A stretch of 11,543 nucleotides of DNA from a virus (taxonomy: Duplodnaviria; Heunggongvirae; Uroviricota; Caudoviricetes), in the IMG/VR virus record IMGVR_UViG_2698536484_000028; one strand, given 5' to 3'. The notes beneath the pieces are model-generated. The model did not search any database and was not told the origin of the DNA. It worked only from the letters and a program-made list of their open reading frames with translations. The number at the start of each line of letters is the position of its first letter. Position 1 is the first letter of the stretch. Position numbers and translations under genes: made by a program. Shown piece after piece: positions 1-11,543 of the stretch.

Positions 1-84
1 TACGTCATTGAACATATCCAGGACTGGCCGGCAAACCGGGTACGCGATCTGTTGCCCTGGAAAGTTGATCTGAGCTCTCAGTAA
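1..84 (+). CDS. 3' end of an ORF entering from upstream of the window; product unknown
   Basis: Frame 1 is open from the window edge to TAA at 82-84 and translates to YVIEHIQDWPANRVRDLLPWKVDLSSQ*. There is no start in the window and I do not recognise the family. Confidence 0.2.
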   Translation, partial: YVIEHIQDWPANRVRDLLPWKVDLSSQ

Positions 85-145
85 ATATCAATACGGTTCT
101 GACGAGTCGCTTACGGTATTTAAATGACATAGGGTTTTTATTCCC

Positions 146-170
146 AAATAAAAAACCCCGCGATGCAGGG
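146..170 (-). terminator. Rho-independent terminator ending the minus-strand replication operon
   Basis: Minus-strand RNA reads CCCUGCAUCGCGGGG (stem CCCUGC/GCGGGG with one U-G wobble, loop AUC) followed by UUUUUUAUUU. It lies about 25 nt downstream of the stop of the 194..955 gene. Confidence 0.55.
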
Positions 171-193
171 TTGTAATCAACAATAAGGGGTAA

Positions 194-955
194 TTACGAG
201 GAAGCGTTAGCTATTTGAGCTTGTGTAAATTCGAAACCAGAATTTTGTAACCGTTGCACTAGACGAGGAACTGTTTCACGTACATGGTCGTTGAAATTCA
301 GATACAAAATCCCGTTAGCATCAGAAGGCTGTTCTAGGTGCTGTTTCTGAAGGATTGCTACATTGCTGCGCCCTAAGGACGAAAGAAGCATACCCATCTC
401 GAGTACAACGTTCTGTCTTGCGCGGGGTTGGATTTCTGCTTCACCGGCGCGCTTTGAGTATCCCATATCATCAGGTGTCAAAAGAACAATCCCGAAACGG
501 GTAGCAGTTTGTCCTTGCCCAATTTCACGTTCAAGCTCTTCAATAATGGTGAGTCCAGTCCCTCCCGTATTCTGCAAAATGAAATGGTCTGGTAATCCAA
601 GTTTATGAAGGATTAGCTCAAGTTGCTCCTTTGCAGTATGGTCATGGCCGTGAACAATGAATATCTTTTTGGGGAGCTCAGATGGCTGTTCTACGGCTAG
701 TGGTGTTGCCGTGGGCGGCGTTCCTAAATGGGTCATTATTGCAGTTTCAACATTGGGACGTTCTTGAGGGTTACCTTGAAACTGAATGGTCCGGGTGGTG
801 TAAAGGTTAACAATTACGCCATTCGTTAAACGATAGCAGTCACAAGTCTCACGCTGTTCGTGGGAAAAATTGGTGAACCCACACTCCCTCAAAAAGTCAG
901 GAAAAGTTTCTCTCGAGTATGGATAGGTGATCGGCATTTCAGTTAGTTCCTGCAT
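194..955 (-). CDS. TIR-like (COG4271 / Cap12-PycTIR-effector-like) nucleotide-binding domain protein with an unrecognised ~75-aa N-terminal domain
   Basis: 253-aa ORF with AAGGA about 9 nt upstream of the ATG. Residues ~97-230 carry KIFIVHGHD..AKEQLELILHKLGL..GLTIIEELERE..FGIVLLTPDDMGY..NVVLEMGMLL, which I recognise as the hallmark pattern of the predicted nucleotide-binding TIR-like family. A Pro/Thr-rich linker (GTPPTATPLAVEQPSELP) joins it to the N-terminal domain. Family assignment is from memory, not a search. Confidence 0.75.
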   Translation of the reverse strand: MQELTEMPITYPYSRETFPDFLRECGFTNFSHEQRETCDCYRLTNGVIVNLYTTRTIQFQGNPQERPNVETAIMTHLGTPPTATPLAVEQPSELPKKIFIVHGHDHTAKEQLELILHKLGLPDHFILQNTGGTGLTIIEELEREIGQGQTATRFGIVLLTPDDMGYSKRAGEAEIQPRARQNVVLEMGMLLSSLGRSNVAILQKQHLEQPSDANGILYLNFNDHVRETVPRLVQRLQNSGFEFTQAQIANASS

Positions 956-1019
956 AAGTATTGTTCCTTTAATTTACTCGAATTCAGCATGTCGCCATAG
1001 CTCGATAAGGTGAGTTATA

Positions 1020-3083
1020 TCAATCTTTTTTGTAGTGGTACGCCTCAAAACCGCCAGCGTTCAGTGGGATATCGGGCGCCCATTCGGGGTCAGTGGAGAG
1101 AAGCGCGGAAAGCGCTTTATCGTTGAAATCTTCTGTGTCAGGTGCTTCGGTGATCACCTCGTCGTGTACCGTCAGCACAATGCTGTAACCGGCATCTTCG
1201 ATAAGCGGCATGTTTCCGGCCAGAATGTCGCGGGCGGCCGCCTGGGTGATGTTCTCCACCAGCTTTCCGCCGTAGGTTTTGAGTCGTTGCCATTTACGCG
1301 AATAAGAGTTAACCCCCATGTAGGTGATATTCCCTTTTTCGATAACCGGAGACGGGTAGCATACAGCGCGTCCGGATGGTAGCTGTATGCGCAGCCACGC
1401 GCCATCGCGGCGGATTTTAAGATAACCGCAATACAATGTTTTTTGCGGTGTGGCGATTGCAGTGCGGACGGTGCGCTCCAGTTCGTACCAGAAATCACAG
1501 GTCGCGGGATGCGCCCGGCGCCAGAGACGTTTAAGTGAGTCGCAGGCGATAAATACCCGTTCAGAAAGCCCGTAGGTTGACTTGCGTTTAACCGATTCGT
1601 CGTACCAGCTTTTCGCCTCGCGGATAACATCGCGGGGAATGTTTGGTAGTGCGGCGTTCGCCAGCTCGTCGAGATCGAGACCGTAAACCAGTGCAAAAGT
1701 GATGAAGGCCGACACACCACCACCATAACCCAGACCGAGTTCCATGACTTTACCGATCTGACGCATGTGTTTATCAACATCATCTGGTGCAATATCGAAA
1801 GCTTTTGCATACGCCAGTTTATATAAGTCCGGACCCGTTCCGGCGTCGTACTCTCTGAATGCATTCAGTTTCCATTCTTCTCCCGCCAGCCATGCCAGCA
1901 TACGGCCTTCAATGTTCGACAAGTCACTTACCACCAGCTTTTTGCCTGTTGGCGCGATAATGCAGCCACGTAACGCTGAACTGGTTAGTTCCATGATATT
2001 GTCAAACAGCAGGTCTGCACATCCGGCTTTCAGTGCTTCGATGCCTTCGTCTATTTGTTCCTGTTTTAGTGAAGGGCGGGGAAGGTTCTGGGGCTGGAAT
2101 AGCCGTCCGGCCCAACGACCGGTACGTGACGCCCCGCAGAACTGTAGCGTACCGCGTAAGCGCCCGTCGTGGCTTACGCCTTTCATCAGTGCCTTGTATT
2201 TACTGGTGCTGGTAGTACTGGCCTGCAGGCGGATAGCCAGCAGTTCTTTCACGGCAGATGGTAAATCGGGGTCGGCAATACGACGTTCCAGAGTACTGCG
2301 TTGCATGTCTGGTAGCTCCACACCGTAGGATTCAACAATGTGCTTAATCAACGCGTCTCGTTGTGTGGCTGCCTGCACTTCGCCATCAGTCATTTCCTGT
2401 GTACGCTTTGCCAGGCGCTTTTGCTCCTGGTCTACCGCTTCGATCGCAGCGCGCGCGAGTTGAATGTCCATGCAGACGCCCCGGTCGTTGATCTGCTGAT
2501 CACGATGCCAGAGCGCCAGTTCTGTCCCCTGATAATTCCACTTCGGCAGACGTTTATAGACTTCGCGCATTGCCTCGATATCCAGTCCGGCGTAAGCAAC
2601 AAAGCGCCGCCATTCTTCCGGGTGGGTTTTACTGGTGGCCCGACGCAGTTTGCTGTTTTTCGGGCGTGGCTTACAGAACAGCTGGATCAGCGCTTTACCT
2701 TCTTTGTCCTTCGCTTTGTCTTGCGGGACGCCGAGTATTTCGCAGAGTTCCCCCAGAGACCCCGGGAGGCCGTGCGCCAGCGCCTGCACCATTGTGTCGC
2801 GCCAACGTTCGACTGGCGGTGCCAGGCGCGGCATTGCATAACGCAGAACGGTGCGGTCGAAGTGAGAGTTATGGAAATAAAGCAGGGTTTCAGGGTCTGC
2901 GATTGCTTCGTATAAGCCGTGTGGAATACCACCACCGGCAGTGATATCCCACACGTTTACTGGCCCGTCGTTGATAGCCCATGCGAAAAGCATCACTTCA
3001 ACGCCTTCGGCATACGCATGGGTACCGTTCGTAATAGGGATTTCGCAATAGGTTTCCAGGTCGCCCCATAGTATATTGGACAT
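1020..3083 (-). CDS. Family A (Pol I-like) DNA polymerase with N-terminal 3'-5' exonuclease domain, phage type
   Basis: 687-aa ORF with AAGG SD 7 nt upstream. Exo I-like motif WGDLETY near the N-terminus; motif A-like [15 protein letters not shown], motif B-like [16 protein letters not shown], motif C-like LTVHDEV. Confidence 0.9.
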
Positions 3084-3129
3084 GTGTTTACCTTGGTTTT
3101 TATTCTATTAACTGATTAAAAGATTAATT

Positions 3130-3759
3130 ATGCATATGATCCAATACTTGATTGACCATACAGAGCATCTGGAGAAAATAGCTGGATATATTTTTTCATG
3201 TTTGATTGTTATGGGAGTCTGGATAAGAAAGATTATTTTTAATTATAAGTATAAAGAGCCTAAATATGTTAAGAAGTTAATTTTATATTTAGTTAAGTAT
3301 GAACGTTATCTGGATGAGGAGGATAAGAGTGCCATAGAAAAAAGAATAAATGATAAAATTATTCGTGATGCGCTGAAATTGCAATCATCTTATAACCGAA
3401 GAGATGTTATTTACATTTGCAATAGATTAGAAAAAAGACAGTATATAAATCAGTTGATTAAGCTTCAGAATTATATAGAGAAAGATAACGGAGTGTTTTT
3501 TATTAATGTTGATTTTTCAGGTTTTTTATTTATTATTAGTCGTCTGTTTTCCTTTCTGTGTTTTGTGCTGTTTACCCTTTTTTCTATTATCTGCATTATT
3601 TCCATAGGGCAAAATGAAGGCCTTTTAAATTATCTTGTGTATATGGTTATGATAATAGTTTTAGAGACTGTTGGTTTTTGGATGTATGATACTTTCCCGT
3701 CTAAGAAAAAGATCTGTGAACTAAATAAAGAATTGAGAAAGATTAAGATTCCTGAGTGA
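3130..3759 (+). CDS. Hypothetical multi-pass membrane protein encoded by a strongly AT-rich, opposite-strand insert
   Basis: 209-aa ORF on the opposite strand to its neighbours. Sample 60-nt lines count about 17-33% GC, against roughly 50% in flanking genes. Hydrophobic segments at ~aa 16-32, ~121-160 and ~168-187; Lys/Glu-rich middle region. No clear SD, and the start could be a downstream Met. Confidence 0.6.
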   Translation: MHMIQYLIDHTEHLEKIAGYIFSCLIVMGVWIRKIIFNYKYKEPKYVKKLILYLVKYERYLDEEDKSAIEKRINDKIIRDALKLQSSYNRRDVIYICNRLEKRQYINQLIKLQNYIEKDNGVFFINVDFSGFLFIISRLFSFLCFVLFTLFSIICIISIGQNEGLLNYLVYMVMIIVLETVGFWMYDTFPSKKKICELNKELRKIKIPE

Positions 3760-3777
3760 TTATACGCCTAATCAGTA

Positions 3778-3796
3778 GCCCGGTGTTTAACCGGGC
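3778..3796. other. GC hairpin between convergent genes (GCCCGG-TGTTTAA-CCGGGC)
   Basis: Perfect 6-bp inverted repeat with a 7-nt loop between the stop of 3130..3759 (+) and the stop of 3812..4360 (-). No U-tract on either strand, so not a canonical intrinsic terminator. Confidence 0.3.
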
Positions 3797-3811
3797 GTCT
3801 ATGAAGTAGGG

Positions 3812-4360
3812 TTAAATTAGTGCTTCAGCATCAGCACCTTCGCTGATATCGTCGAAATCGTCAGCGCTTGCCACTCCGCCGCCAGCGAGTGCATCGCCGT
3901 CTCGCAGGAACTGGACTCCGCCGAGTGAGGCATTAATGCGTTTACCGAAATTATTGTCCTGTGCCCAGATATCGATAACGGCGTTTACATAGCACCCTGC
4001 ATAGGGACGTCCGTCAGCCTGAATAAGTGGCGAACGATCGCGATCAAGAACAGCTGGGCGCGCTTTGTTAGCAGCATTCAGGAAGAAATTACCGGGGAAG
4101 CCTTCATACTCTGCTTTTTCATCACCATCATGCAGGCACAGATTGAGTTTTTTCTCCAGCTGGTTATAAATGGGCTCCCACTTCTCTCCCCATTTTTCCT
4201 TCGCTACCTGCTTCATAGCTTTACGGATTTCTTCCAGTTGTGGGTGTTTGGGAGACATTAAAAATACTGCGGAGAAACGCGGATCGCCTTCGCCGTTTAC
4301 AGTTTTAGCTTCAAACAGAGACGGGAAGGCCAGACGAACATTGTTCAGCTTCAGTTTCAT
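3812..4360 (-). CDS. Phage SSB-like protein (DUF2815-type) with acidic C-terminal tail
   Basis: 182-aa ORF with AAGGA SD 8 nt upstream. N-terminus MKLKLNNVRLAFPSLFEAKT..PRFSAVFLMSPKHP matches my memory of the DUF2815 phage ssDNA-binding family (as in the Enc34-type replication module). C-terminal acidic tail DDFDDISEGADAEALI. Confidence 0.8.
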   Translation of the reverse strand: MKLKLNNVRLAFPSLFEAKTVNGEGDPRFSAVFLMSPKHPQLEEIRKAMKQVAKEKWGEKWEPIYNQLEKKLNLCLHDGDEKAEYEGFPGNFFLNAANKARPAVLDRDRSPLIQADGRPYAGCYVNAVIDIWAQDNNFGKRINASLGGVQFLRDGDALAGGGVASADDFDDISEGADAEALI

Positions 4361-4375
4361 GGGTATTTCCTTAAA

Positions 4376-5677
4376 TCAGATGAGGTCTGCGGTTAGCGTA
4401 TCGTCGGATACGTCGTCGAAATCATTTACAGGGTTGATATTGAGTGCGGGGCGTGGGTCTGACTCGGGAACGACGGTGGGTTTTCCATCAGCTCGTGTTA
4501 TCAGTGCCTCGACTTTTGACCAACGGCGCGGACTGGCCTTTTTGATAAGTTTTTCGGCTTTTGTGGGACTAATAAGTTTAAAGTCGAATACTTCTTCAGT
4601 TTTGTACCTGAACTGGTCCTTCAGAAGTGCGCGAGCTGCCTCTTCATCACTCCAGGCCCGGTTACCTTGTTTTCCTGTTACCAGTTTAAACCCCGGTACC
4701 GGATGTCCGGCATTGAGTTCATCGTGAACCCGGTCCCGTACTGCCTTTAGCCAGGATTCAATAAAGTCGGCCTGGCTATAGATCTCTGCAAGCTGCTCAA
4801 TGGTTAACAGAGGTACACGTGCGCTGGCATTGGTGATTATTTCGCTGACAGGCTTTGTCAGATCTTCAAAATCGCTGGCCGCTGTTTGTAAATGCTGCAT
4901 TTTCTGGGCAGTGCAAATAGCTTTTGCTTTACAGAAGCGGCACTGTTTTTCTCCAGGTATGAAGTTTTCCAGCGGTAGTGTCTCAATGCCTTCGCATTCA
5001 GCAATATTGAGAACAAGGATCGCACTGGTTGCGGCCTCCAGTGCCCGTTCACCGAAAGACTGAAGTTCCTGTACGGTTAACGACCATTCTGAAACGTGGT
5101 TGAGCCTTGGCTGGTGAATAAATAATCTTACAGTCTCAAAGTCATACAGCATGCTGAATTGTTCGAGAGCACCCAGAGCATACAGTTGTAGTTGCTCATT
5201 TTGTTCTGCATCAATGCGGACGCCTTTGCCATATTTCAGGTCGTGGATTTGTAATTCGTTACCAGCGATGATTATGCCGTCGGCAGTTCCGAAAGATTCT
5301 TCCACACCCGTTATATGTGAGAAATCAACACGTTGTTCAACCAATAGTTCATTATTCTGTGCAAGAGTCCAGACCGTATCAACATACCGGCCGACGGCTT
5401 CGACCATTTCATCATCCACCTGTGGGCCAGATGTATCATCAGGATTTTCGCGAAGGGGGTATGAGCCGAGAAACATAGAAACATTGCATCCGGCGTAGTG
5501 TTCCGGGTGGCTTTGCCTGTTTCGTAGAACTTTTTCAGCAAGCGCGTGCGCTGTAGTGCCCTCGATTGCAAAAGTTGTTTCTTTATCCGGTTGTGTGGCC
5601 TCCAGCGCCAGACTTCCTGGGCAGCGCATCCATCGATGCGCTGATGATGGAGAAAGTTGTGCGTGAACGTCTGGCAT
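4376..5677 (-). CDS. Cas4/RecB-like PD-(D/E)XK nuclease (DUF2800-type) with Cys cluster
   Basis: 433-aa ORF with GGAGGG SD 6 nt upstream. N-terminal [15 protein letters not shown]; GTADGIII and IHDLKYGKG nuclease-core-like motifs; QLQLYALGA (QxxxY); [10 protein letters not shown] plus the N-terminal Cys as a probable Fe-S/metal cluster. Acidic C-terminal tail [16 protein letters not shown]. Confidence 0.8.
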
Positions 5678-5679
5678 GA

Positions 5680-6582
5680 TTAACCCTCCAGTGCTTTTTC
5701 AGCCAGGGTGATTACTTCAGCGAGATTTTCATCCGTTACTTCACCAAGTTTCCTGGCTCCCTGTTTTTCCAGAATTGCAATAGCTTCTGCCCGGTAGCCC
5801 CCTTTTGCTAACTGGAGGATCAACCCTTCAGCTTGTTTGCGTAGTGCCGCGAAATCAATTGTATGGTCATCTTTGGCGTCATTATTCTGGCTGGAATTTG
5901 CTGCGTCTCTGCGTGCAAATTCTTCCTGCAGCTGAAGGTACTCAACACGGTTGATCTCGATATGGCCTTTTTTAAGCATCTCGTTCAACTTGCGTAAGGT
6001 GTGGAGTTCACTGGCTGCTGTGCCGGATACATTTTTGACGTAAAACGGCCCCGTGCGTTCTCCATCTTTGTTACTGGCCTTTTTCGGCTTAACTTCATCA
6101 CGCCCATCTGCAGGTGCATCAAGTAGCTGCTCGGCAAAAGCACGTCGCTCGCCGATGGTTGGCAGGTCGTCCCAGAACTTAAGGATGTTACGGGACAGGT
6201 CCAGGAGAGCAGGTTTAAGCAGCGCCCTGGCTCGTTTGACGCCCTGCAATGCGCTGTCGAGAGCATCAATCTGAACTACTCGTTTATCGCCTTCAGCATC
6301 ACGGTAGGCAACAGCACGTTGCAGCATATCTTCTGTGATAGGGGTGGCTACCGGGTAGAAACCAGCCAGTGCGATAACGTCGCTGAACTCCAGATCATCC
6401 AGTGTCATTGCCGCTGACATATTTTCAGTTTCAGTTGCTGTATCCCGACATTCCTGCACTCGTGAAATCGTGTCAGGATGCATAACAATACCTGATGCCA
6501 TTGTGCGGATAAGACGTTCAAGCAGCGCATTATGTTGTGCCAGAAGTTGATTATTAAGTTCTAGACTGGTTTCTAAACTCAT
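5680..6582 (-). CDS. Hypothetical protein, first large gene of the replication operon
   Basis: 300-aa ORF with GAGGA SD 7 nt upstream. Its start overlaps the upstream ORF stop (ATGA) and its stop is 2 nt from the nuclease start. No family recognised. Confidence 0.7.
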
Positions 6583-6728
6583 ACTGTGGTCCTCGCTACA
6601 AGGAGAATGAAAGTGATGATCAGACCGAGCGCAGTGGCAACGGCCAGACCGGTCATCAAATCGAAGTTTTTACGGCGATAACGGAGAACATCGCGCCCCG
6701 TCAGTCGATGGATGTGTTCAGGTTTCAT
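6579..6728 (-). CDS. Small single-pass membrane protein (about 49 aa from the preferred start)
   Basis: The ORF track gives 6579..6761, but the Met at 6728 has a good SD (AAGGA, 9-nt spacing) while 6761 has none. C-terminal hydrophobic helix LMTGLAVATALGLIITFILLVA. Translationally coupled (ATGA) to the next gene. Confidence 0.5.
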   Translation of the reverse strand: MKPEHIHRLTGRDVLRYRRKNFDLMTGLAVATALGLIITFILLVARTTV

Positions 6729-6785
6729 CGGTTGTATTCCTTTTTTCATATCGGGGAGCACGCTGTTGCGAGTGCGCTTTCAGAC

Positions 6786-6813
6786 ATAAAAAAGCCCGTC
6801 ACTTGCGGCGGGC
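6786..6813 (-). terminator. Intrinsic terminator-like hairpin on the minus strand, upstream of the replication operon
   Basis: Minus-strand RNA reads GCCCGCCGCAAGUGACGGGC (5-bp GC stem with additional inner pairs) followed by UUUUUUAU. It lies about 58 nt upstream of the 6728 start codon, on the same strand. Confidence 0.45.
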
Positions 6814-6891
6814 AAAGACTACACACAGCAATTACATGGATATCATCGAGTGCCTGCTTTTAACCACATCAGGCGAGGTGGTTCTCCTTGT

Positions 6892-6936
6892 ACCCCTACA
6901 GTGAGAAATCGTCTAATATCTCTTCACCCCTACAGT
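6892..6936 (+). repeat. Two direct copies of ACCCCTACAGT upstream of the 6953 gene
   Basis: The core CCCCTACAGT occurs at 6893-6902 and 6927-6936, 34 bp apart. The second copy sits inside an imperfect inverted repeat (TCTAATATCTCT .. GAGAGATTAGA). A TAATAT hexamer lies between them at 6914-6919. Confidence 0.35.
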
Positions 6937-6952
6937 TTGAGAGAGATTAGAT

Positions 6953-7471
6953 ATGTCTGAAGAAAAAGGAATTCTTTCCCGGATAACTGAATCGTTATCC
7001 GGTGTGGGAGGAGCAATTAAAAGCGCGGTTGGAGCAGCAAGAGAGATTCAGAATCTGACTGTCGACTATGCAGTTAAAGAGAAGACGCACATCTTACTCG
7101 ATAAGCTAATGGATGTTCAGATGCAGCAAATGTCGCTTCAGGAGCTGCTGATTGCGGCTAAGGAGAAAATTGTTGAACTGGAAAATGAGAAAGTAAAGCA
7201 AGAGAACTGGGCCGCTGAAGCGGCGAGCTATGAACTTTACCAGCCTATGCGGGGTACTCTGGTCTATCGCAGCAAGCTTTCTGCAGATGCTGACCAATCT
7301 CCGGTTTATATTTGTCCCAATTGCTACGAGCAAAAGAGAAAATCTATATTGCAAGCGGAAGGTCTGGTTACTAAGCTAGGCCTTGGGCGAGTCGTTAATA
7401 TGGTTTGTTCGTACTGTAGGGCTTCCTATCTGTTCAACCCGAAATGCTTTAGAGGCCCGACTGCCTTCTGA
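6953..7471 (+). CDS. Hypothetical coiled-coil protein with C-terminal zinc-ribbon (CPNC..CSYC)
   Basis: 172-aa ORF with GAGAGA SD-like sequence upstream. Gly-rich N-terminal segment (SGVGGAIKSAVGAA), predicted coiled coil (LQELLIAAKEKIVELENEKVKQENW), then CxxC-25 residues-CxxC. Convergent with the cI-like gene. Confidence 0.7.
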   Translation: MSEEKGILSRITESLSGVGGAIKSAVGAAREIQNLTVDYAVKEKTHILLDKLMDVQMQQMSLQELLIAAKEKIVELENEKVKQENWAAEAASYELYQPMRGTLVYRSKLSADADQSPVYICPNCYEQKRKSILQAEGLVTKLGLGRVVNMVCSYCRASYLFNPKCFRGPTAF

Positions 7472-7574
7472 AGATGAAAATCCGGGGAAGGCAATCACGG
7501 ATTACGATCCTTACAACCAGTAATTTCTTTAAGCATGGGTACCCTTCCGGTCACCCAGAGTTAAAGGAACTAAG

Positions 7575-7601
7575 CGCCCCATCATCGGGGCGTTTCAACT
7601 T
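7575..7601 (+). terminator. Possible plus-strand terminator after the 6953..7471 gene
   Basis: CGCCCC-ATCATC-GGGGCG hairpin (7575-7592) followed by TTTCAACTT. The U-tract is weak. Confidence 0.3.
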
Positions 7602-7737
7602 GCGTGACTTATCAGTTCGTCGCGGTGTTGTCCTCTACGCTTACCGTACGCATACGGACTCGGCGCTTACCTCGATCCCATCGGGTGCTATTTCGTTTTG
7701 CCAGGAGCACTGCGGCTTACCTGTCACGCGGTTCTGT

Positions 7738-7749
7738 TTGTTAAAGAGC
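7738..7749 (-). promoter_or_regulatory. boxA element (exact GCUCUUUAACAA) in the leftward transcript
   Basis: The minus strand reads GCTCTTTAACAA, identical to the rrn boxA core 12-mer as I remember it (NusB/NusE binding site). It lies about 30 nt downstream of the predicted start of the leftward promoter. Confidence 0.45.
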
Positions 7750-7773
7750 TGGTATTAGAAAATGCATTAATTA

Positions 7774-7814
7774 TGCGGTATCGTATTTATATGCGTTATG
7801 GGATTTTGTGTCAA
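7774..7814 (-). promoter_or_regulatory. PL-like leftward sigma70 promoter overlapped by two operator-like repeats
   Basis: On the minus strand: -35 TTGACA (rc of 7809-7814), 17-bp spacer, -10 TATAAA (rc of 7786-7791). Operator-like motifs TGCGGTATCG (7774-7783) and TGCGTTATGG (7792-7801) flank the -10 hexamer. Confidence 0.55.
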
Positions 7815-7830
7815 TACGAAAATGAATTAT

Positions 7831-7868
7831 TTTGCAAATAAGAAAACCGCCCTTGTGGAGAGCGGTTT
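7831..7868 (-). terminator. Intrinsic terminator downstream of the cI-like gene
   Basis: Hairpin AAACCGC..GCGGTTT (7844-7868) with extra inner pairs; on the minus strand it is followed by UCUUAUUUGCAAAAU. Sits between the cI stop (7899) and the PL-like promoter. Confidence 0.5.
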
Positions 7869-7898
7869 GATCAGAGGTAAGTTATCAGACTGTAAAGG

Positions 7899-8573
7899 TT
7901 AGTACATGCGTAGCGCGGATTTGGCGATCCCCGCCACGTAATGGATTTTTTCAATGTTTTCGCGTGGTACTCTGACTGGTGGATGATCTTCATTTACAGA
8001 CATTAGATGGAACAGGCCATCGCGTTCGAACAAGAAGGTTTTAACCATGACCTCACCGTCCCGGGTAACCACAAGTACTTCATCACCAGGAGTGTAGTCG
8101 TGGTTGGGTTCGACGATTACGAACTCACCCTCTTTGATTCTAGGCATCATTGAATCACCAACACATTTCAGGGCGTATGCATCTTCATCCTTTGTCGGCC
8201 AGTATATGAAACCATCACTGCTACCTACTGAATATTGGGTGTCGCTCCAAAGTCCTCCAACGCCTAGCTGAGTGTTTCCCAAAACAGGTACTTTATTAAA
8301 CCTAAGAGAAATATACGTTTTTATACCTGTCGCGTCCTCTTTCTCCATTTCTTGAAGGCTCCTTTCTGCCAGGTCTATTGGTGACACGTGGAAGTAGTCG
8401 GCGATCTGCTTTAACGTTGCGTATTTCGGATCTTTCACCTCTCCTGATACCAGCCTGTGTAGCGTTGGTTGGTTCAGCTGTAACCGACGTGCCAGCTCAG
8501 TTATCGAGCTTATCTTGGTTTTGTCCATCAGGTACTTGATGTTTTGAGAAAGGATATCGGTAGTATCAATCAT
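7899..8573 (-). CDS. cI/LexA-like phage repressor (N-terminal HTH, C-terminal S24 peptidase domain)
   Basis: 224-aa ORF. N-terminal HTH region (ITELARRLQLNQPTLHRLVSG); C-terminal S24 signature with Ser in CVGDSMMP and Lys in EVMVKTF. No canonical Ala-Gly cleavage site in the linker; candidates are L-G or V-G-G in VPVLGNTQLGVGG. Confidence 0.85.
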   Translation of the reverse strand: MIDTTDILSQNIKYLMDKTKISSITELARRLQLNQPTLHRLVSGEVKDPKYATLKQIADYFHVSPIDLAERSLQEMEKEDATGIKTYISLRFNKVPVLGNTQLGVGGLWSDTQYSVGSSDGFIYWPTKDEDAYALKCVGDSMMPRIKEGEFVIVEPNHDYTPGDEVLVVTRDGEVMVKTFLFERDGLFHLMSVNEDHPPVRVPRENIEKIHYVAGIAKSALRMY

Positions 8574-8714
8574 TTGGATTCATCCATGTTGTATACAGGG
8601 ACGGTGATTATGCGTTATCGGATATTTTAATACAGGATGATATAGAATTGCCGTATTGCTGAATAATCCGTTTTCGTATAAATTTGCGCTATAGACGAAA
8701 GTGGAGACTTAAAT
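8574..8714. promoter_or_regulatory. Divergent cI/cro-type immunity control region
   Basis: Operator-like motifs TGCGTTATCG (8611-8620) and TGCGCTATAG (8685-8694). Candidate rightward promoter -35 TTGCTG (8656-8661) / -10 TAAATT (8679-8684), with cro SD GGAG at 8703-8706. Candidate leftward -10 CATAAT (rc of 8607-8612). Palindrome TGTATACA at 8590-8597. Confidence 0.5.
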
Positions 8715-8915
8715 ATGTCCGGACTAACACCACAAGAGATGGTCAAAAGCTTGATTGATTCAGGGTATACCCAAAACCAAATTGCCGAAATTGCAGGCGT
8801 GAAGCAGTCTTCTATTAGTCGGCTTCTCACCGGGGTTCATTCTGACCCTCGCTTTTCTACAGTACGTGCGATAGAAAAGCTTTTTCAGGAAGTGACAGCT
8901 AGACAAAAGGCGTAA
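8715..8915 (+). CDS. Cro-like small HTH (XRE-type) regulator
   Basis: 66-aa ORF divergent from the repressor, with GGAG SD 8 nt upstream. HTH region QNQIAEIAGVKQSSISRLLTG. Stop is 3 nt before the primase start. Confidence 0.8.
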   Translation: MSGLTPQEMVKSLIDSGYTQNQIAEIAGVKQSSISRLLTGVHSDPRFSTVRAIEKLFQEVTARQKA

Positions 8916-8918
8916 CCC

Positions 8919-11180
8919 ATGTCTGATAACAAACCATGGGGAGCTACGCCCGATGAGTGGTTCCACTTCGATCTGGTGTTGGGGATGACAGACAGGCTTT
9001 TACCTGTGGTGTCCAATCCCTGTGCAGAACTGTCGCCTAATAGCAAGCTGTCTCATAATTTCGGCAAAACCCCCAGTCGCTACAATGGCCAACGTAAGGT
9101 TGTTGGTATCCCCGACTGGGCTAACTATGTTGTTACGGAAAACGATTTTGCCCGGTGGTCGAACGAACCCGATTACGGTATTTGCGTTCGTACTGGCGAC
9201 GGGGTGGTGGCTCTGGACTGCGATATCAATGACGCCGGGATGCAGGAGATCGTACGCAATATTATCCTATCATGCCTGGGGGAACTTCCGCCACGTCGCT
9301 GGCGGGCTGACAGTCATAAATGCCTGTACCTGATTGCTGTTGATGGCGACTACCGTAAACGTGGTCACCGCCTGGAAGGCGAAAACAAACAAATAGAGCT
9401 GCTCGCTAAGGGCCAGCAGTTTGTGGCTTGTGGTACCCATCCGGCAGGCGAACGTATTCAGTGGGACAGCGGTTTGCCCGGCGAACCTCTGAAAATTACA
9501 TCTGAACAGCTCGAAAGCCTGTGGCAGCGTCTGGCGGATAACTTACCCGTGAAAGACAGCTATACCGCAGGTGCAGGACGTCAGCGTGACCTTTCCTGTG
9601 TTGATCCTTCCGCGACAGATGATGTCGCCGACTGGCTTGACGCGAACGGGTGGACTCTGTCAGTCAGCTCTGATGGTTCCCGCAATCTGAAACCGTTTCG
9701 GGATGAGTCAGAATACAGCAACGGTTGCAGCGAAACATCCATTAAGTATTTTCCAAAAGGGACGGGGGGATTTGAACAGGGACATTTTAAAAGCATGCAC
9801 AACACCGATGCGGGGCTTACTGATGCCGACTGGCTGGAAGGCTACGGCTATACGCAATCCCTGTTCGAAGATCTCACGGTGGCTGAAGATGGCGATAAGC
9901 CTGAATTTACCGATATTAATACAGATATGACAGCTCATTTTCTGGAACGCTTTATCTACGTCATCGAGGGTGACCAGGTATGTGATCTTAGCCGACCGCC
10001 ATATCAGTGCATGATGGATATGAAGTCGTTCAAAAACCTGATGGCGCCTTACCAGTTCCCGCCAGAAGGGAAAGGACAACCAACTCCCGCAACCAAACGG
10101 TGGATAGAGCATCGGCATAAGAAGATTGCTGAGACGACAGGCTATAAGCCCGGTGCGGGACGTATTATCGAGCGTTTCGACGGGCGGTTTGAGATAAACG
10201 AATTTTATATGCCTGAGCATCCACGTACAGCGGATACAAGTAAGGTGTCCACGTTCCTTAATCATATGGCGTATCTGGTACCTGATGCCTGGCAGCGCGA
10301 GTTTTTCATCGCCCGTCTGGGGTGGATGGTTCAGCGTCCGGAGCGTCGATGCCCGATTTCTATTCTGCATGTGGCTACCGCACATGGTACGGGCAGAGGA
10401 TGGGTCAGTCAGTTAATGGAGCGCGTGCTTGGCCCGTGGAACTGTGCTCGTACTCGCATGAAGATCCTGTGCGATAACCAGTTCCATGACTATCTGTACA
10501 ATACACTTCTATGCACCATTGACGAGGTGCGCGAAAACGATAAGCGGTATGAGGTGAACGATAAGATCCGTGACGTGCTGACAGAACCACGGTTTGAAGT
10601 GAACCGCAAATATGGCAGCAAAAAAACGATGGATATATACACCGGCTTTCTGTTCTACACCAACCACTTTGATGCGCTGGCGCTGCCAGAGGAAGACCGA
10701 CGTATAGCTGTGCTGGGGGGCCCTGACTTCGCCGCAACTGAAGAGCATTACGCCAGCCTGTACGGTGCGCTAAGCGACAGCGACTTTATCGCCCAGGTGT
10801 ACTGGTATCTAATGGGCGTTGACCTGTCTCGCTTTAACTGGCAGCGCGCCCCCGAGACGAAAGAACGCCTTCTGATGATTGAAAGCAATAAGAGCGATGT
10901 GGAGGCTGCTCTTATTGAAATCCTGGATAATCCGCCTGTGCCAGCAATGACTTATCAACAAATTGTTAACGCAATACTGGCAGAAGCAGGAATGGATGTA
11001 GAAATTAACCAGAAGCATATTACTCGCATTTTGAAAGAAAGAACAAAGCGGGAACCCGTACGCGTAAAAATTGACGGGTTTGTATATAGGATTTGGATTC
11101 TTGTAAAAAATAACGATTTCAGCAACGAAGAATTGCGCGAAATATATAAATCTTGCGAAATTTTGCAATCTGGATTGTAA
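8919..11180 (+). CDS. Replication initiator: AEP-type primase-polymerase N-terminal domain fused to an SF3-helicase-like NTPase domain
   Basis: 753-aa ORF. N-terminal GICVRTGDGVVALDCD (hhhDhD-type AEP motif). C-terminal region has P-loop-like ILHVATAHGTGRGW, Walker B-like LLCTIDEV and motif C-like FYTNHF. An iteron origin lies immediately downstream. Confidence 0.8.
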   Translation: MSDNKPWGATPDEWFHFDLVLGMTDRLLPVVSNPCAELSPNSKLSHNFGKTPSRYNGQRKVVGIPDWANYVVTENDFARWSNEPDYGICVRTGDGVVALDCDINDAGMQEIVRNIILSCLGELPPRRWRADSHKCLYLIAVDGDYRKRGHRLEGENKQIELLAKGQQFVACGTHPAGERIQWDSGLPGEPLKITSEQLESLWQRLADNLPVKDSYTAGAGRQRDLSCVDPSATDDVADWLDANGWTLSVSSDGSRNLKPFRDESEYSNGCSETSIKYFPKGTGGFEQGHFKSMHNTDAGLTDADWLEGYGYTQSLFEDLTVAEDGDKPEFTDINTDMTAHFLERFIYVIEGDQVCDLSRPPYQCMMDMKSFKNLMAPYQFPPEGKGQPTPATKRWIEHRHKKIAETTGYKPGAGRIIERFDGRFEINEFYMPEHPRTADTSKVSTFLNHMAYLVPDAWQREFFIARLGWMVQRPERRCPISILHVATAHGTGRGWVSQLMERVLGPWNCARTRMKILCDNQFHDYLYNTLLCTIDEVRENDKRYEVNDKIRDVLTEPRFEVNRKYGSKKTMDIYTGFLFYTNHFDALALPEEDRRIAVLGGPDFAATEEHYASLYGALSDSDFIAQVYWYLMGVDLSRFNWQRAPETKERLLMIESNKSDVEAALIEILDNPPVPAMTYQQIVNAILAEAGMDVEINQKHITRILKERTKREPVRVKIDGFVYRIWILVKNNDFSNEELREIYKSCEILQSGL

Positions 11181-11183
11181 AAA

Positions 11184-11437
11184 GGTGACGGCTAGGTGAC
11201 GGCAAAACGCTTAAGCGTCACCTTAAAAAGTATATATAAAACAATGGGGAATGTGCTAAAGGTGACAGGTGACGGCAGAATTTAAAACTATATACGCGAG
11301 AGTGTGTATTTTAGGTATTATACGATCGCTTATATATATATAGAACTAAAATCAACCGTCACCTGTCACCTAAAACATCTTCAGGCTTTATATGGCGCGC
11401 TTTGCAGCAGGTGACGGATATGTAATTACGCGTCACC
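11184..11437. repeat. Iteron-type replication origin: eight GGTGAC(G/A)G repeats in both orientations around an AT-rich spacer
   Basis: GGTGACGG at 11184-11191, 11195-11202 and 11410-11417. Tandem GGTGACAGGTGACGG at 11261-11275 and its exact reverse complement CCGTCACCTGTCACC at 11356-11370, flanking an ~80-bp AT-rich segment that includes TATATATATATAG. Inverted CGTCACC at 11216-11222 and 11431-11437. Confidence 0.6.
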
Positions 11438-11440
11438 TAG

Positions 11441-11543
11441 GGAAGGTGCGAACAAGTCCCTGATATGAGATCATGTTTGTCATCTGGAGCCATGGAACAG
11501 GGTTCATCATGAGTCATCAACTTACCTTCGCCGACAGTGAATT
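11441..11543 (+). mobile_element. Left end of IS5 (terminal inverted repeat plus start of transposase), truncated by the window edge
   Basis: GGAAGGTGCGAACAAG at 11441-11456 matches the IS5 terminal repeat as I remember it and is preceded by CTAG (a typical IS5 target). The downstream sequence matches the known IS5 left end up to the transposase start. Confidence 0.8.
11509..11543 (+). CDS. insH: IS5 transposase InsH, N-terminal fragment
   Basis: ATG at 11509 translates to MSHQLTFADSEF.., the N-terminus of IS5 transposase as recalled. The ORF runs off the window. Confidence 0.75.
   Translation, partial: MSHQLTFADSE

Follow-up and report, generated by a model that had tools for sequence, protein, structure and literature searches.

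The DNA considered here is an 11,543-nucleotide stretch of Caudoviricetes origin (IMG/VR record IMGVR_UViG_2698536484_000028), hereafter the window. On its minus strand, at 194..955, lies a complete coding sequence, the TIR gene, whose 253-residue product joins an N-terminal domain of TBP-like fold through a linker to a predicted TIR domain of the Cap12/PycTIR type (open reading frame (ORF) list, Pfam and PADLOC). With a probability of about 0.55, we read this product as a single-protein abortive-infection TIR NADase of the family PDC-S35, which has an N-terminal sensor of the RNase H3/RnlA type and travels as dispensable cargo, in a variable slot among the replication genes of a temperate, BPP-1/APSE-like Enterobacterales phage. 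The triggers of TIR NADases that lack a partner are mostly obscure. Here a candidate sensor can be named, a domain with the hybrid-recognition fold of RNase H3 that is also the tie between RnlA and RNase HI. A trigger of this kind would bear on how abortive-infection proteins detect phage replication and on why RnlA needs RNase HI.

A predicted TIR domain of the Cap12/PycTIR clade

The motifs KKIFIVHGHD (residues 96-105) and GIVLLTPDD (residues 155-163) had led an earlier reading of the window, made from the sequence alone (hereafter the sequence-only reading), to propose a TIR-like domain with a FIVHGHD..LLTPDD pattern, and profile searches agree with it. Pfam places residues 97-222 (290..667, minus strand) in PF10137, CAP12-PCTIR_TIR, with E 2.9e-31 and 108.4 bits against a curated cutoff of 24.7, the alignment spanning model positions 1-118 of 119. 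Judged by its score this match is far above chance level, and PF10137 is matched by 69/69 homologues. It is the only Pfam family found at E<=0.01, with no match to a deoxyribosyltransferase, SLOG or PF08937. When a profile made from the 69 homologues was compared with the PDB, the only meaningful solved relatives were Cap12/TIR-STING (9lmq, 7un8) and PycTIR (8jsj), and TIR-STING is also the best, though weak, match in Foldseek. By the profile comparisons the C-terminal domain is a predicted TIR domain of the Cap12/PycTIR clade.

Cryo-EM of SfSTING has defined a pocket formed by R78 and N80, a catalytic glutamate, E84, and a residue, D110, that completes the opposing TIR domain's active site within the filament (PMC9402430). 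In the PDB profile alignment, in which the SEQRES index is offset by 8, these four residues are matched by R180, N182, E186 and D212, respectively. R180, E186 and D212 are invariant in the 69 sequences and N182 is at least 90% conserved. The codon of E186, the equivalent of the catalytic E84, lies at 398..400 (minus strand), with those of the pocket residues R180 and N182 just upstream, and that of D212 at 320..322 (minus strand), within a tripeptide, P210-S211-D212, that is invariant in the family. The conservation of catalytic, pocket and trans-acting residues supports an NADase that needs TIR-TIR packing for activity. The predicted domain looks catalytically competent and is most likely an NAD+ glycohydrolase; from the same residues we infer both the NADase activity and its dependence on oligomerisation.

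Membership of a candidate defence family

PADLOC assigns the protein to PDLC05003 (PDC-S35) with E 4.3e-109, residues 10-253 aligning with model positions 3-245 of 245, and on this alignment it is a full-length member of that candidate family. The PHROG match is 16442, to which PHROGs assigns no function. Matches to better-known families are confined to the TIR region: NCBIfam Cap12 equivalogs, for which the cutoff is 450, reach 30-35 bits (34.8 in one case) and align with no more than a part of the TIR domain, and the PADLOC PycTIR match, at 32.9 bits, covers the TIR core only. There are 2,703 detectable homologues, nearly all of about 250 residues and of the same architecture, and the family occurs in 237 species representatives from many bacterial phyla and in one archaeal metagenome-assembled genome.

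The named systems with related TIR domains differ in what accompanies them. Cap12/TIR-STING of CBASS (SfSTING, PDB 7UN8; 9LMQ) belongs to the same PF10137 clade, the pocket Arg and Asn, catalytic Glu and trans-acting Asp all align, and the same assembly-dependent NAD+ hydrolysis and abortive infection would be expected. In the window protein, however, the sensor is N-terminal and of another fold, Pfam finds no STING or SAVED domain, there is no CD-NTase among the scanned window ORFs, and no cyclase recurs in 80 related loci in which all ORFs within 5 kb were clustered; CBASS membership was rejected. PycTIR of Pycsar (PDB 8JSJ) is of the same TIR clade, its profile match being weak but specific, but here there is neither a cyclic-nucleotide-binding domain nor a pyrimidine cyclase partner, and Pycsar membership was rejected as well. 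Thoeris (ThsB) was set aside for want of a PF08937 match and of a recurrent ThsA-like partner. The sequence-only reading had seen no cyclase or other partner gene nearby, and there is indeed none among the ten window ORFs scanned by Pfam and none that recurs in the 80 loci. With PDC-S35 the protein has its single-gene organisation in common and nothing structural differs, PDC-S35 being a computational candidate only. An analogy of logic only is offered by SpbK of the Bacillus subtilis element ICEBs1, described as a single TIR NADase on a mobile element that senses the phage protein YonE and excludes a competing temperate phage (PMC12847820).

The TIR clade is well known and PDC-S35 is already catalogued as a candidate. 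Literature searches on PDC-S35, on PF10137 and on defence by TIR with RNase H found no paper that names the family or describes its architecture. In the searchable literature there appears to be no description of what the sensor domain is, of its presence in RnlA/LsoA and long dCTP deaminases as well, or of the linkage to RNase HI genes.

The N-terminal domain and its relatives

The N-terminal domain is the most informative part of the protein. The sequence-only reading had it as a small unrecognised domain; it is indeed a separate domain of about 80 residues (residues 1-80; 716..955, minus strand), but it can be recognised, as AF2 structure prediction gives it a TBP-like beta-alpha-beta4-alpha fold. 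Residues 9-77 are modelled confidently (pLDDT about 90), and the closest structural matches are the hybrid-binding N-domain of RNase H3 and the NRD of RnlA. The following linker (residues 81-96; 668..715, minus strand) is a low-complexity Pro/Thr/Ala segment of varying length across the family, with gapped, unconserved alignment columns and pLDDT <50 over residues 80-93.

In Ta-RNase H3, Tyr43 stacks on a deoxyribose of the RNA/DNA hybrid, Ser45 and Ser47 contact a DNA phosphate and the amide of Gly52 contacts an RNA 2'-OH; the N-domain in isolation bound the RNA/DNA hybrid as its sole ligand (PMC4132731). A counterpart of these contacts is the motif Y52-T-T54-R-T56-I-Q-F-Q60-G61 (773..802, minus strand), in which Y52, T54, T56 and G61 are spaced as Y43, S45, S47 and G52 are, an equivalence of motif spacing rather than of direct alignment. 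T54, T56 and G61 are at least 90% conserved in the family alignment and Q60 is invariant. The pattern aromatic-x-[ST]-G-[ST]-x3-Q-G is common to the family, RNase HIII and the LsoA NRD, the Aquifex RNase HIII version being Y45-K-T47-G-S49-LLI-Q-G54. In RnlA, it is the NRD with which RNase HI associates in vivo, and activation of the toxin depends on RNase HI (PMC5308261).

Sequence searches give weak matches that point to the same two groups. Of the Pfam families PF11858 and PF15935, RnlA_toxin matches 11 of the 69 members (best E 0.00085) and DUF3378, the N-domain of RNase HIII, matches four (best E 0.02), all below the gathering scores. A profile of the N-domain only, compared with 177,635 PDB sequences, returns the RNase HIII N-domain first (E 0.068) and the LsoA NRD next (E 0.38). 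The case for homology rests on convergence, that is, on fold, motif and top-ranking matches taken together; on this basis the domain is a putative homologue of the N-domain with which RNase H3 binds hybrids and of the RnlA NRD, and may itself bind hybrids.

The partners of these relatives differ. In RNase HIII (DUF3378; PDB 4PY5, 3VN5) the fusion partner of the domain is an RNase HII-like nuclease that serves the housekeeping removal of hybrids, and here it is a TIR domain. The HEPN toxins RnlA and LsoA, of anti-T4 toxin-antitoxin systems, are likewise anti-phage suicide effectors, with RNase HI tied functionally to the RnlA module (PMC5308261), but their effector is a HEPN RNase rather than a TIR domain, in RnlA there are two TBP-like domains in tandem, RnlA is paired with an antitoxin of its own, RnlB, and the sequence similarity is below family thresholds.

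The N-domain is also found beyond this family. Its profile has 899 matches among 1.8 billion representatives, many of them fragments of the TIR family and some of them proteins with tandem N-domains. One protein of 617 residues combines it with a dCMP/cytidine deaminase domain (PF00383, E 1.3e-15), and full-length homologues of this fusion carry the NCBI name 'anti-phage dCTP deaminase'; in hhalign the N-domain profile aligns with residues 1-69 of the Pseudomonas entomophila deaminase member at a probability of 98.4% and E 7e-15. This long form of the anti-phage dCTP deaminase thus has a homologous N-terminal domain and is, too, a single-protein, metabolite-depleting defence, with a kinase-like and a deaminase effector instead of a TIR domain. 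In another match (P0204, 428 residues in total) the N-domain precedes a long hydrophobic multi-pass region, which suggests a membrane-disrupting effector variant. Six proteins of about 160 residues (P0175, P0180, P0183, P0253, P0265 and P0270) join it to a conserved C-terminal domain of about 60 residues (…LLKRVK.AL…GL.V.LV.DS…IYIRKL), which has no Pfam match and may be another effector or adaptor. It is usual for a sensor or regulatory module of defence proteins to be found joined to a variety of killing domains, and by that general pattern the shuffling of the N-domain onto different effectors points to a sensor-like module.

One homologue of the N-domain 'anti-phage dCTP deaminase' (locus L102, 5001-6803) was seen directly 3' of hsdR-hsdS-hsdM in a type I restriction-modification (R-M) operon, followed by a HicA toxin gene.

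Linkage to RNase HI and other neighbours

No obligate partner emerged from the 80 related loci, in which no neighbour family is present in more than 13. The most frequent family among the immediate neighbours, which were counted separately (10 of 149), is RNase HI (PF00075, E about 1e-43). In about 12 of the 80 species loci it is directly adjacent to the TIR gene on the same strand, often with stop/start overlap. The linked members occupy at least four separate positions on the TIR-domain tree. Their settings are also diverse: a conjugative element; beside an integrase; beside a resolvase; beside Replic_Relax with Schlafen/Fic; beside a PAPS-reductase with HNH; and, twice, among housekeeping genes. 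The catalytic motifs are intact in the adjacent RNase HI proteins, as is the N-domain motif in the linked TIR proteins.

Other neighbours include integrases, relaxase and type IV secretion system genes, Mrr, PemK, type I R-M subunits, AriA-like ATPases, MADS components, Cas1, DUF4145 and Phd/YefM, mixed with housekeeping singletons. These defence and mobile-element neighbourhoods support the reading of the protein as a standalone effector. A small ORF of 70-86 residues just 5' of the TIR gene in two lineages (L007-L009, Vibrio, 7716-7976; L010/L011, about 7721-7933) was considered as a partner and rejected, as no Pfam domain matches it and it is not a recurrent neighbour in the 80 loci.

Accessory cargo within an early operon

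Polymerase homologues were found by tblastn (matches at E<=1e-30) in 1,589 phage records and the TIR protein in 4, three of which are of one phage type; by these counts the TIR gene is accessory cargo. It is absent from the nearest polymerase relatives, namely YeP4 (73.5% polymerase identity), BPP-1, APSE-2 and Acinetobacter phage 4316. In BPP-1 and APSE-2 the polymerase gene is directly followed by VRR-NUC, and at the TIR position YeP4 has two small ORFs and Acinetobacter phage 4316 a different gene of 192 residues. The GC content of the TIR gene is 0.46, against 0.54 for the polymerase gene, and it is also the lower of the two in all five other prophages compared. Between the window and an E. 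coli prophage (L095), DUF2800, SSB and polymerase are 99%, 97% and 90% identical but the TIR gene only 72%, which indicates that recombination has replaced the allele here. In different lineages (loci L013 and L095-L099) the two slots next to the polymerase gene contain DUF4145, HNH/NUMOD4, AntA/Bro-N, YfdP with DUF2303, Nmad5 or DUF2335, and in the window such a slot has a membrane-protein gene with 28% GC; this shows that they are cargo sites in BPP-1/APSE-like prophages. One subclade of the family (55-92% identity) has been kept in the replication module in prophages of E. coli, Serratia, Yersinia, Providencia and Salmonella. Among seven Enterobacterales lineages (the window phage and six loci) the TIR gene is directly 3' of the polymerase gene in six, with a usual gap of 53-69 bp, and in Salmonella it occupies the slot between SSB and polymerase.

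The Family A DNA polymerase gene of the window (1020..3083, minus strand; Pfam DNA_pol_A) lies directly upstream of the TIR gene, as had been noted from the sequence. The 64-bp gap between them has no sigma-70-like promoter, the promoter scan having found no minus-strand site in 1-3900, and the two genes are probably co-transcribed. Because no promoter was detected in the gap, expression of the TIR gene is probably tied to that of the early replication genes, when the phage is induced or infects, and is not a feature of the lysogen.

The sequence-only reading had further placed the TIR gene last in the replication operon, at the edge of the module, and here it fails, although the ORF, its motifs, the TIR domain, the separate N-terminal domain, the lack of a partner and the terminator were all found as it described them. 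The phage homology of the window stops at ~114, where the 3' end of a non-phage IS66-like ISCro1 element begins (1..113, plus strand; present at 100% identity in 2,098 E. coli genomes, where the annotation is IS66-like ISCro1 transposase). Both the intact phage and the prophage of E. coli IAI1, the integrase of which adjoins yfhL, have further genes past the TIR gene on the same strand, in the order ANR-family regulator, small ORF, VRR-NUC nuclease, SNF2/DEAD helicase, excisionase-like HTH protein, integrase. The TIR gene is therefore in the middle of an early leftward operon, between polymerase and VRR-NUC, and the apparent module edge is an artefact of truncation by the insertion sequence (IS).

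Proposed function and alternatives

If the protein is an abortive-infection NADase, its TIR domains would pack together as in TIR-STING, with D212 of one subunit completing the E186 active site of its neighbour. The packed domains would cleave NAD+, and the loss of NAD+ would bring the cell to a halt and so stop a phage that competes or infects. As the sensor or regulatory module, the N-terminal domain of TBP-like fold would govern TIR assembly, and the likeliest cue would be an RNA/DNA hybrid or altered RNase HI-linked nucleic-acid processing during phage replication. The sequence-only reading had offered a standalone effector with its own sensor domain as one of two options, and this is the better supported: the PDC-S35 match, the conserved catalytic residues, the shuffled N-terminal module and the defence or mobile-element neighbourhoods all favour it. 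It is from homology and these neighbourhoods that we infer the defence role and the nature of the trigger.

A broader proposal, which is tentative and which we consider rather doubtful, is that the N-domain is a dedicated surveillance sensor for RNA/DNA hybrids or for RNase HI, put onto a TIR NADase, the RnlA/LsoA HEPN RNase, a dCTP deaminase and membrane proteins. The occurrence of the N-domain on the dCTP deaminase and of RNase HI beside the TIR gene in several phyla suggests a common trigger for three suicide effectors. If the proposal is true, PDC-S35 would stand for an immune logic that watches for intermediates of replication or transcription (primers, R-loops) or checks that RNase HI is intact. 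The long-puzzling requirement of RnlA for RNase HI would then be explained, and the cognate RNase HI of about 15% of lineages would set a threshold or prevent self-activation.

Several observations weigh against the abortive-infection reading or parts of it. On the side of the TIR domain, this half of the AF2 model is of low confidence (pLDDT 50-70) and the fold match is weak (Foldseek best, TIR-STING 9lmq, E 2.2e-4, TM 0.31); the model is too uncertain there for a useful fold search, and the fold assignment leans mainly on sequence profiles. As for the sensor, each sequence match of the N-domain to RnlA or RNase HIII is individually below significance (E 0.00085-0.38), and the binding of RNase HI to RnlA was seen by in vivo pull-down only and not in vitro (PMC5308261). 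RNase HI adjacency is lacking at 85% of loci, and also at the three N-domain deaminase loci, a sample of three loci only. The dCTP deaminase that was tested, from E. coli AW1.7, seems to be without the N-domain, its kinase P-loop being at residues 29-30. The position of the TIR gene inside the replication module in 7/7 Enterobacterales lineages could mean a service to the phage, and expression with the early genes instead of in the lysogen would be unusual for a prophage defence gene. Finally, the literature search found no experiment on any PDC-S35 member, so that a defence role is drawn from homology and context.

That position is the starting point for the idea of a phage replication accessory, in which a hybrid-binding N-domain, expressed with the polymerase, would bring a TIR-like or nucleoside-processing enzyme to primers, R-loops or the nucleotide pool and so aid phage DNA replication. 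It would fit a gene that, in prophages of E. coli, Serratia, Yersinia and Providencia, lies 53-69 bp 3' of the polymerase gene with no promoter detected, and that in Salmonella lies in the same module. TIR and polymerase divergence are similar in several lineages, a Pfam scan of the window ORFs finds no RNase H or 5' nuclease of the module's own, and the commonest neighbour elsewhere, RNase HI, is a replication enzyme. Yet the gene is missing from YeP4, BPP-1, APSE-2 and Acinetobacter phage 4316 and is present in only 4 records against the 1,589 with the polymerase, and most family members are outside phages, in integrative and conjugative elements (ICEs), R-M islands and integrase-proximal islands. 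GC content and allele replacement are those of cargo, and the conserved residues are those of an NADase, with no Pfam match to deoxyribosyltransferases or SLOG. We regard such an accessory as unlikely. The same records and the lone PF10137 match disfavour the SLOG/deoxyribosyltransferase-like replication enzyme that had been the other option of the sequence-only reading, and a conserved replication enzyme of all related phages, which that reading had named as evidence against itself, was rejected on the presence/absence data. Similarly unlikely is a toxin or addiction module that stabilises mobile elements, with a latent NADase restrained by a host factor (e.g., RNase HI) or by its own N-domain; loss of the element or of the factor would kill the cell, phage exclusion being only a by-product. 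Prophages, ICEs and integrase-proximal islands would be natural locations for it, the tight, overlapping TIR-RNase HI gene pair resembles toxin-antitoxin pairs, and in the RnlA precedent RNase HI aids the action of the antitoxin. Nevertheless, 85% of loci lack an adjacent second gene, and the RNase HI partners, with every catalytic motif in place, look more like functional enzymes than dedicated antitoxins; moreover, this explanation overlaps with a defence role rather than excluding it.

Phages carry enzymes and sponges against nucleotide signals, and a gene of a phage early operon, probably expressed at induction, might serve in counter-defence, its TIR-like domain binding or destroying host immune nucleotides or NAD-derived signals, or pre-empting NAD-dependent defences, early in the lytic phase. 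This is quite improbable, as the family has spread widely among bacterial chromosomes and ICEs, with R-M and other defence genes for neighbours, the same N-domain is on the anti-phage dCTP deaminase and RnlA-type toxins, which are host-side weapons, and literature searches turned up no PF10137 precedent in anti-defence. Less probable still is a signal-generating TIR protein like ThsB of Thoeris, the NAD-derived messenger of which would act on a separate effector with a gene at another place. It would fit that TIR domains can act as synthases of signals and that the gene is small and has no obvious killing domain besides TIR, but no ThsA-like or other recurrent partner was found in the 80 loci, the studied members of the PF10137 clade are NAD-depleting effectors, and PF08937 is not matched.

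Ends of the window and other genes

The TIR gene is preceded by a Shine-Dalgarno sequence, AGGA (965..968, minus strand), 9 nt 5' of its ATG. A terminator after the gene, noted by the sequence-only reading, is present as an intrinsic-terminator-like hairpin (145..172, minus strand; AACCCUGC-AUC-GCGGGGUU then UUUUUAUUU), which separates the TIR gene from the ANR gene downstream. The hairpin itself (172..154, minus strand) has 8 pairs and a 3-nt loop and is followed by a U-run, and the minimum free energy of the region has z = -2.1. Of the ANR-family regulator only the first codons remain (114..130, minus strand; ATG at 130..128) before the cut by the IS, in a gene order that is that of E. coli IAI1 and phage vB_EcoM-606R2. 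No tRNA or Rfam element was found in the window.

The right end of the window, 11437-11543, is IS5, and the window as a whole is a prophage segment between two insertion sequences, the IS66-like ISCro1 on the left and IS5 on the right. Three temperate Escherichia phages, vB_EcoM-606R2, 689R2 and 611R5, match positions 114-11440 at 98.5% identity. The TIR gene with the junction seen in the window is present in ~37 of 5,426 complete E. coli genomes.

Three further genes of the window lie on the plus strand. Between the SSB and polymerase genes, at 3130-3759, is an ORF of 209 residues with 28% GC, a promoter-like site at 3077-3106, a hydrophobic C-terminal half and a match to PHROG 10579 (function not assigned). 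This ORF has the look of a moron and is possibly a membrane exclusion or abortive-infection protein. At 8919-11180, 3' of a cro-like gene, is a 753-residue primase-polymerase/DUF5906 (VapE-like) replication initiator. Lastly, between the leftward early genes and the repressor gene (7899-8573, minus strand), an ORF of 172 residues at 6953-7471 matches PHROG 1244 and no Pfam family, and has a coiled-coil-like middle and two C-terminal CxxC pairs.

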